50,632 bases of DNA from Escherichia coli (lineage in GTDB: Bacteria; Pseudomonadota; Gammaproteobacteria; Enterobacterales; Enterobacteriaceae). Shown in pieces: positions 1 to 50,632 of this stretch. A program made the position numbers and the translations under genes. Position 1 is the stretch's first letter. Each line of letters starts with the position of its first letter. Below the pieces are notes generated by a model that made no database searches, was not told where the DNA came from, and worked only from the letters and a program-made list of their open reading frames with translations. The stretch lies in assembly GCF_003334315.1 (NCBI RefSeq), contig NZ_QOWR01000031.1; one strand, written 5' to 3'.

Positions 1-149
1 GGTTGAGAAGCGGTGTAAGTGAACTGCAGTTGCCATGTTTTACGGCAGTGAGAGCAGAGATAGCGCTGATGTCCGGCGGTGCTTTTGCCGTTACGCACCA
101 CCCCGTCAGTAGCTGAACAGGAGGGACAGCTGATAGAAACAGAAGCCAC
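1..149 (-). CDS. insA: IS1 InsA, N-terminal part (5' partial in window, GTG start at 147..149 on minus strand)
   Basis: Minus-strand translation from 149 gives [50 protein letters not shown], the InsA N-terminus with its CxxC...CxxC zinc-finger motif. Confidence 0.85.
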
Positions 150-204
150 TGGAGCACCTCAAAAACACCATCATACACTAAATCAGTAAGTTGGCATCAT
201 CACC
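1..204 (-). mobile_element. IS1 insertion sequence, partial (IRL-proximal 204 bp; rest lies left of the window)
   Basis: Reverse complement of 1..204 reads as the IS1 left end as I recall it: terminal inverted repeat GGTGATG(A/C)TGCCAACTTACTGATTTAGTGTATGATGG at 182..204, followed by the start of insA. One base in the IR differs from the canonical sequence I remember. Confidence 0.9.
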
Positions 205-48693: not shown

Positions 48694-48799
48694 CTTTAAT
48701 CCTTGAAAGGTTAATTAAAAAAATGCAAATCTCTAAAGCCCGGTACGAATATCGCAACCGGGTATCATTTAACTTTAATTTCGACGCGTTAAAGCAGTA

Positions 48800-49105
48800 T
48801 TAGTGTGTAGTGGACGTGGTGGTTGAGGTGTTATGAGAACCGCCATCGCCACTGTCATTTGCTGCAACAACTGCCAACGTCGCCACACCAACAGCCGTTG
48901 CCACACCGACAACTGTCGCCGTGCCGACAGCGCCAGCAGCCACGCCACCAGTGGTAGTAGCAGTCGTGGTTGCGCCGGTAGTGGTCGTTGTGGTGCCAGT
49001 AGTACCCGTCGTTGCCTCGGTCCCGTTTGTTGCTTCAGGGGCAGCAAACGCAGCTGGCGTCGTCAACATGAAGGCCATAAGGATTGCAGAAAGCTTGTGT
49101 TTCAT
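48800..49105 (-). CDS. gfcA: Threonine-rich small secreted protein GfcA (YmcD)
   Basis: ATG at 49105 (MKHKLSAILMAFMLTTPAAFA signal peptide) followed by a T/G/A-rich low-complexity region; 101 aa. Confidence 0.85.
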   Translation of the reverse strand: MKHKLSAILMAFMLTTPAAFAAPEATNGTEATTGTTGTTTTTTGATTTATTTGGVAAGAVGTATVVGVATAVGVATLAVVAANDSGDGGSHNTSTTTSTTH

Positions 49106-49546
49106 AACTTTTCCTTTATTCATCGCATGGACAATACGTACGCTTGAGATCAAGATTGTCTACTTTGAGTATAACATCCTTGTGAAATCTCCCTTTCCTC
49201 ATACCGCTTGCACTATATACTGCGGGTAGGAAAGGCGCGCAGAGGGAAATATAAGATTGTTAACTATCCCCCTCTGGAAATACGACTTGTGAGCATAAGA
49301 TAAATCTTAGCAAAATACAAATTAAAGATAAGGAAATTGTTACGAAAGCTATTAATTATTGTTGGTAATATAGTTTCAAGTGGTACTATAACTGGCTGTT
49401 AAATGGCATTTATAACTATTAGGTGCAGAGATATTCGCTTAAATGGATTAGTTTCTTTGTGGAAAAGTAACTGATGTTATAATGTATGATGTTGACTATT
49501 GCACTATTCCAATAAAACCAGTCAGCTTTAAACAAGCAGCGTCATA
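49106..49546 (-). promoter_or_regulatory. AT-rich gfc operon upstream/promoter region, uninterrupted by IS
   Basis: 441 bp AT-rich intergenic region between the gfcA start and cspH stop with no IS1 sequence (no IS1 inverted repeats or insA/insB reading frames). The promoter itself is not mapped. Confidence 0.5.
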
Positions 49547-49759
49547 TTAAGAGAGATAAACATTTGCCGCTGTTGGTCCTCGCAGGCCATTTACGCGGCA
49601 AAATTCCACACGTAATCCTGGTATAAGCACTTCTGCGTCGCGGGGAGTGAATGCGGAAATATGGACCTGAACTTCTTTACGACCGTCAGAGGGGATAATG
49701 AATCCTTTGCCGCTTTTGCGATCAAAGGTTTTGACAATTCCTGTCATTTTACGGGACAA
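49547..49759 (-). CDS. cspH: Cold-shock-domain protein CspH
   Basis: 70-aa [40 protein letters not shown]... with cold-shock domain. Confidence 0.92.
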
Positions 49760-50044
49760 ACAAATTCCTTACTGAAAATACTGCGCTGCACTATACGGGG
49801 TTAATAAAATAAAGCCAGCGATATTTAAGACCGCCGGACGGCTAAAATAAAATTTGCTTAATCTCAATTATCATGCGTTAATAGCTGCGTCGGTTTGAAA
49901 GACAGACAGCATACAAAGTAGTTTACTAAAGCAGTTCTCATTATCAGGCATTATCCCCTTCTTTTGAGTCTCTCTCCTGAACACTAAGTAGTTTCTGTAT
50001 TAAAGCCCTGTTTGCCGAAAGGCCCAAAATGAAGGAAGTAAAAT

Positions 50045-50179
50045 ATGTCTAATAAAATGACTGGTTTAGTAAAATGGTTTAACGCAGATAAAGGTTTTGG
50101 CTTTATCACTCCTGATGATGGCAGCAAAGACGTTTTCGTCCATTTCACTGCCATCCAGAGCAATGAATTCCGCACGCTG
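50045..50179 (+). pseudogene. cspG: Cold-shock protein CspG, N-terminal 45 codons only; truncated by IS1 at 50179/50180
   Basis: Translation [45 protein letters not shown] matches the CspG N-terminus (RNP1 KGFGFI, RNP2 VFVHF). The reading frame then runs into the IS1 inverted repeat (track ORF 50045..50260); the expected C-terminal ~25 aa are missing. Confidence 0.88.
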
Positions 50180-50632
50180 GGTAATGACTCCAACTTATTG
50201 ATAGTGTTTTATGTTCAGATAATGCCCGATGACTTTGTCATGCAGCTCCACCGATTTTGAGAACGACAGCGACTTCCGTCCCAGCCGTGCCAGGTGCTGC
50301 CTCAGATTCAGGTTATGCCGCTCAATTCGCTGCGTATATCGCTTGCTGATTACGTGCAGCTTTCCCTTCAGGCGGGATTCATACAGCGGCCAGCCATCCG
50401 TCATCCATATCACCACGTCAAAGGGTGACAGCAGGCTCATAAGACGCCCCAGCGTCGCCATAGTGCGTTCACCGAATACGTGCGCAACAACCGTCTTCCG
50501 GAGACTGTCATACGCGTAAAACAGCCAGCGCTGGCGCGATTTAGCCCCGACATAGCCCCACTGTTCGTCCATTTCCGCGCAGACGATGACGTCACTGCCC
50601 GGCTGTATGCGCGAGGTTACCGACTGCGGCCT
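50180..50632 (-). mobile_element. IS1 insertion sequence, partial (IRR-proximal 453 bp; rest lies right of the window)
   Basis: 50180 onward reads GGTAATGACTCCAACTTATTGATAGTG..., the reverse complement of the IS1 right end as I recall it, continuing as antisense insB to the window edge. Confidence 0.93.
50195..50632 (-). CDS. insB: IS1 transposase InsB region (C-terminal part; 5' end beyond window)
   Basis: Minus-strand translation ...[68 protein letters not shown]...[15 protein letters not shown] with stop at 50195..50197. Confidence 0.92.

Follow-up and report, generated by a model that had tools for sequence, protein, structure and literature searches.

Interruption of the cold-shock gene cspG by IS1 in a draft genome of Escherichia coli

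Intact CspG (WP_000066490.1) is a cold-inducible RNA chaperone, one of several such proteins in the CspA family. Of 5,426 complete E. coli genomes, 5,410 carry cspG over at least 80% of the length of the gene. Such near-universal conservation indicates that cspG is under purifying selection, so that its loss may not be entirely neutral, and that the gene is not dispensable in the long term. The quadruple csp mutant is reportedly cspA cspB cspG cspE. A quadruple csp deletion strain is described as cold-sensitive (PMC12562117, its reference 2), while single csp deletions entail no more than a very slight slowdown at low temperature, and CspG made little difference in an assay of rRNA transcription (PMC12562117). 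In view of this redundancy of cold-shock proteins, a mild phenotype at most is to be expected from the loss of cspG.

The disruption of csp genes by IS1 is well precedented, as cspC::IS1 (+9 bp) arose in laboratory-evolved E. coli MG1655 (PMC5460176). The element is the same as in the locus described here, it likewise entered the coding region, of about 70 codons, of a CspA-family gene, and the mutation was read as a loss of function. The two alleles differ in position, nt 51-59 of 210 in cspC against nt 135/136 of 213 in cspG, and in what can be seen of them: the cspC mutation belongs to a laboratory line in which both junctions and the 9-bp duplication are resolved, whereas the cspG allele comes from a natural isolate, with one junction visible. 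The present case, confined to one strain, is nothing out of the ordinary and adds one more allele to a thoroughly familiar type of IS1 disruption.

IS1 copies also occur in other strains in the chromosomal surroundings of cspG. In K-12 (DH1) a copy of IS1D lies between gfcA and cspH. In HS30-1, IS1A joins a truncated gfcE to the region upstream of cspH, gfcA-D being lost, and in KTa005 an IS1 joins a truncated gene of the gnsA/B family to agp, with the loss of yccM through yccE. All three copies are of the same element family as the one reported here and fall within the same 3 kb (gfc operon, cspH, cspG, ymcFE, gns). However, they sit in intergenic DNA or in other genes and leave cspG intact, whereas in the present isolate cspG itself was hit. 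The gfc-cspHG-gns neighbourhood has been struck repeatedly by IS1, with at least four independent events within a few kb, the present one included.

The window, that is, the whole stretch of DNA analysed (50,632 nucleotides), is the entire draft contig QOWR01000031.1 (GCA_003334315.1), both ends of which lie inside IS1 copies. A survey of its features in the region of interest is compiled in Table 1. The gene order gfcE-D-C-B-A, cspH, cspG is the same as in the relatives and supports the assignment of the interrupted gene as the cspG orthologue. No difference from the intact gene and its locus is seen in the first 45 residues, in the 5' UTR, in the promoter region or in the synteny, whereas residues 46-70, which form beta-strands 4 and 5, are swapped for 26 unrelated residues. 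The stretch from gfcA to cspH (48756-49546) contains no IS1, unlike its counterpart in K-12 (DH1).

Table 1. Features at the cspH-cspG locus and at the two contig ends, in positions of the window
Feature	Position	Strand	Remarks
Second IS1, left-end 204 bp	1..204	-	InsA N-terminus; same orientation as the IS1 at 50180
cspH, divergent paralogue	49547..49759	-	intact, 70 aa, TTG start; region identical to relatives annotated WP_000087763.1
Putative cspG promoter	49854..49882	+	-35 TTGCTT at 49854-49859, 17-nt spacer, TGc + -10 GTTAAT at 49877-49882
cspG 5' UTR, cspA-type	49889..50044	+	156 nt, cold-box region at 5' end; 100% identical to intact loci
cspG codons 1-45	50045..50179	+	beta-strands 1-3, RNP1, RNP2; 100% nt identity to intact cspG
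Chimeric 71-codon ORF	50045..50260	+	CspG residues 1-45 + 26 residues from the IS1 end
CGCACGCTG	50171..50179		9 bp adjoining the IS1 end; expected copy of the target-site duplication if simple insertion
IS1 (IS1A type) right end, 453 bp	50180..50632	-	cut by contig end
IS1 right inverted repeat GGTAATGACTCCAACTTATTGAT	50180..50202		read from the sequence
insB, last 145 codons + stop	50195..50632	-	open frame ending ...HYLNIKHYQ, then stop; PF03400 DDE_Tnp_IS1; runs off contig end

The junction of cspG with IS1

Codon 45 of cspG (CTG) occupies 50177-50179, and the base directly 3' of it, 50180, is the terminal base of IS1. After this codon the intact gene continues with AAC GAA AAT CAG, whereas the window continues with GGTAATGACTCCAAC, the right inverted repeat of IS1. 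In an alignment with the intact cspG locus of KTa005, positions 49880-50179 of the window show 100% identity; from 50180 on, the window and that locus bear no relation to each other. An even longer comparison is provided by strain 2017.04.03CC, in which an intact cspG is followed by ymcF, ymcE, gnsA, yccM and torS; here only 3 of 24,180 bases differ over window positions 26000-50179. Since relatives this close keep an intact cspG, the event is recent.

The end of the element was located by aligning nine independent IS1 insertions, namely the window and eight contig-end IS1 copies, each taken from another assembly. All nine have the same sequence through ...GGAGTCATTACC and diverge at the next base. 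Complete genomes contain copies annotated as 'IS1-like element IS1A family transposase' to which the 453 bp of IS1 at this end of the window are 100% identical, and the right repeat matches the reverse complement of window positions 182-204 (GGTGATGATGCCAACTTACTGAT) at 19 of 23 positions. Thus two claims of the first-pass annotation hold: cspG is cut by IS1 after codon 45, as the alignment to the intact gene demonstrates, and the sequence from 50180 on is IS1, as judged from InsB with its PF03400 match, the identity to IS1A and the terminus common to the nine insertions.

One should recall in this context that the window is an unfinished draft contig ending in a repeat, and that the junction is common to no other genome. 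Both points would suit a faulty assembly, produced by a chimeric join or by a minority variant, of a cspG that is really intact. This we hold to be extremely improbable. The switch coincides precisely with the outermost base of the IS1 inverted repeat, which a random misjoin would hit only by coincidence, codons 43-48 of cspG have no similarity to the IS1 end that might mislead an assembler, and the flanks are error-free against the relatives. A break that falls exactly on the terminal base of IS1 argues for a true transposition junction and against a chance misjoin.

Among the 5,426 complete E. coli genomes, the cspG-IS1 junction is contiguous in none. Matches that seemed to cover it in full proved to be two joined pieces, contributed by IS1 copies elsewhere near cspH or cspG. 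The cspG::IS1 allele is rare, and the isolate could serve as a natural knockout of cspG, a gene that nearly all complete E. coli genomes carry intact.

The chimeric reading frame and the incomplete cold-shock domain

Translation from the cspG start would proceed for 26 codons into the IS1 end and then reach a stop, giving a 71-residue product without beta-strands 4 and 5. The in-frame chimeric ORF of 71 codons reported by the first-pass annotation is present, and its C-terminal sequence is exactly as quoted there. RNP1 (KGFGFI, residues 16-21 of the ORF) and RNP2 (VFVHF, residues 30-34) can be read directly, in agreement with the earlier statement that both RNA-binding motifs fall within the 45 residues retained. 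The same applies to the loss of the last beta-strands: the Pfam CSD match (PF00313) on the chimera extends over model positions 1-44 of 66 only, and homology to Csp proteins of solved structure does not go beyond residues 45-49. The C-terminal third of the domain is lost. With its five-stranded cold-shock domain incomplete, cspG here has to be regarded as disrupted and does not count as a functional member of the family.

Structure prediction points in the same direction. Two AlphaFold2 models were computed from single sequences and, having been made without an alignment, count as weak evidence; the intact CspG control displayed five strands (2-13, 18-23, 30-34, 50-56 and 63-65) at a mean pLDDT of 72.5, and the chimera strands 1-3 only at a mean pLDDT of 58.5, its whole tail falling below 50 and being predicted as disordered. 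This agrees with a barrel that would be unable to close and with a chimeric product that would be non-functional. The tail encoded by IS1 is superficially beta-prone and was considered as a possible mimic of strands 4-5; this idea was rejected, as the tail formed no strands and stayed below a pLDDT of 50 when set against the control.

The chimeric ORF is a by-product of read-through, and the 71-residue product is probably unstable. In RefSeq the chimeric protein is WP_165843457.1, 'cold shock domain-containing protein [Escherichia coli]', a singleton cluster from one contig. Its appearance in RefSeq and UniRef as an ordinary protein, and not as a pseudogene, is an annotation artefact. In the isolate cspG is inactivated, whether by simple insertion or by deletion or rearrangement, and the consequences for the cell would be small to mild.

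Simple insertion, rearrangement and the ends of the contig

With regard to the origin of the allele, we consider it probable that a simple insertion of IS1 with a 9-bp duplication inactivated cspG at the cost of a small phenotype. IS1 (IS1A type) would have entered cspG at the boundary of codons 45 and 46, its insAB genes lying on the other strand; a simple insertion flanked by a duplication of CGCACGCTG is the most likely course, and the remaining 25 cspG codons would then be situated just beyond the element, on another contig. We infer both the 9-bp duplication and the presence of this cspG 3' fragment. A simple insertion predicts, on that other contig, the IS1 left end followed by CGCACGCTGAACGAAAAT; the far side would be composed of the IS1 left end, CGCACGCTG and AACGAAAATCAG, and the far junction would take the form ...AAGTTGGCA[G/T]CATCACC then CGCACGCTGAACGAAAATCAG.

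Look-ups by the cut products InsA (49 aa) and InsB (145 aa) led to numerous assemblies and to a single sister contig, QOWR01000004.1; the partner contig carrying the cspG 3' end was not among them. The far junction, as modelled, holds no callable ORF, so that a look-up by exact protein cannot find it.

On the other hand, IS1 is documented to make adjacent deletions and inversions without direct repeats (PMC9330008 section 5.2.1), and in two of the three nearby cases, HS30-1 and KTa005, the IS1 copy is flanked by deletions, which marks adjacent deletion as common around this locus. For these reasons an IS1-mediated rearrangement, by intramolecular transposition or IS1-IS1 recombination, is kept as a serious rival, in which the DNA beyond codon 45 would have been deleted, inverted or moved. 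There would then be no 9-bp duplication, and the cspG 3' end, perhaps along with ymcF-ymcE-gnsA and beyond, would be missing or located elsewhere. The genome has several IS1 copies, and two of them, in direct orientation, bound the contig, which also speaks for such an event. Nevertheless, although the window itself offers no direct argument against it, a rearrangement seems to us rather unlikely: a simple insertion is the commoner outcome a priori, the closest relatives have no nearby IS1 from which a deletion could have started, and the arrival of IS1 at the exact site would still be needed, be it earlier or simultaneously. Simple insertion is thus the reading we prefer.

A full IS1 measures 768 bp, includes insA, the A6C frameshift site and a second inverted repeat, and is flanked by target-site duplications of 8-9 bp, whereas the window displays the right 453 bp of the element and one flank. 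It stops at IS1 base 453, just before the T-run that represents the frameshift site in the full KTa005 copy. Contigs of many unrelated drafts end at precisely this base, which lies 453 bp in from the right end of IS1, a systematic assembler break; the identical 145-aa cut InsB occupies contig ends in many assemblies (177 index blocks), QOWR01000004.1 of GCA_003334315.1 among them. The shared cut point shows that the stop at 50632 is no biological boundary but a place where assemblers generally break off within a multi-copy repeat, and the contig stops 453 bp into IS1 because short-read assemblers fail to resolve multi-copy insertion sequences. More generally, the bounds of features at the contig ends of draft assemblies are set by the assembler and not by biology.

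At the opposite end, the IS1 at 1-204 is joined to the fimbrial usher gene elfC (ycbS) in mid-gene, the truncated gene following from 205; the annotations under the match at the left contig end are elfC/elfG/ycbU. In all top-ranked complete-genome matches, the IS1 and elfC parts are joined as two separate pieces. The left repeat of IS1 at the start of the window carries a variant base, GGTGATGATGCC versus GGTGATGCTGCC in the KTa005 copy. The window as a whole represents a 50-kb chromosomal segment between two direct IS1 copies. With its ends in direct orientation, a circular or amplified form of this IS1-bounded segment was also considered; the verdict on cspG is the same either way.

Promoter, leader and possible transcription towards insB

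The promoter and the long 5' UTR of cspG had been described as intact over 49760..50044. The upstream sequence is indeed identical to that of intact loci, and this part of the claim stands; the interval given, however, spans everything between cspH and cspG, and only 49889-50044 belongs to the UTR proper. The leader matches RF01766 (cspA thermoregulator) with 116.6 bits versus a gathering threshold of 78 and an E value of 7e-31, model position 1 corresponding to 49889. Past about model position 301, i.e., from 50180 on, the match extends over IS1, where the posterior probability is low and 96 positions are deleted. IS1 takes the place of approximately the last 30% of the thermoregulator model. 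As the model extends through the coding region, the cold-sensing cspG mRNA is not wholly intact after the insertion. Upstream of the leader, a plausible cspG promoter, lying 7 nt before the start of the Rfam match, was located by analogy with the cspA promoter; a generic consensus promoter scan did not flag the putative site at 49854-49882.

That transcription from cspG would run antisense to insB, as the first-pass annotation had pointed out, follows from the arrangement of the locus: InsB is open on the minus strand, and the right end of IS1 is turned towards the cspG start. It had further been suggested that the transposase could be affected in the cold. In this scheme the cold-induced cspG promoter and leader would drive RNA antisense to insB and lower the IS1 transposase, or the activity of this copy, at low temperature. 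The promoter region and the 5' UTR are unchanged, and IS1 would be entered from its right end with insB on the opposite strand. Furthermore, cspG mRNA is strongly increased at 15 °C (PMC12562117), and transposases of other insertion sequences are under antisense RNA control (PMC9330008 section 4.5).

Despite these points, we judge such an antisense effect to be quite improbable. The reading frame closes 81 nt inside IS1 (50260), and downstream of this point the RNA is untranslated and richer in C than in G, with a GC skew of -0.07 to -0.22, features that favour termination by Rho. IS1 insertions are strongly polar in both orientations, through Rho. In line with this polarity, transcripts from the cspG promoter into IS1 are probably short. 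The 3' end of insB would be covered first, whereas the known control points, the insA start and the frameshift site, lie more than 450-700 nt further on. The replaced portion of the thermoregulator model may in addition alter the behaviour of the mRNA in the cold, and other IS1 copies in the genome would not be affected in cis.

The comparison with control of the IS10 RNA-OUT type is instructive. There the antisense RNA overlaps the region of translation initiation of the transposase, whereas the transcript from the cspG promoter would enter insB from its 3' end. From this point of entry it is about 710 nt to the insA start, which lies outside the window, and by this geometry the initiation region would not be overlapped. 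An effect on the IS1 transposase in the cold would thus be possible in geometric terms only. Slightly less credible still, and very improbable in our view, is the extension that IS1 expression or transposition is temperature-dependent and reduced in the cold, and that the RNA could act in trans on identical IS1 copies. If it were true, IS1 transposition in this strain would depend on temperature.

The divergent paralogue cspH had rightly been called intact, its 70-aa ORF being identical to the cspH annotated in the relatives. IS1 is able to supply a -35 hexamer, and activation of cspH through a minus-strand promoter created at the junction was considered as well. The consensus scan found no such promoter on the minus strand of the junction, and there is thus no reason to think that cspH is affected. 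Upstream of cspH, within the cspH-cspG intergenic region, a terminator-like hairpin with a T-rich run is located on the minus strand at 49815-49837. With one such hairpin found versus 1.1 expected in the region, it is at chance level and probably not meaningful.
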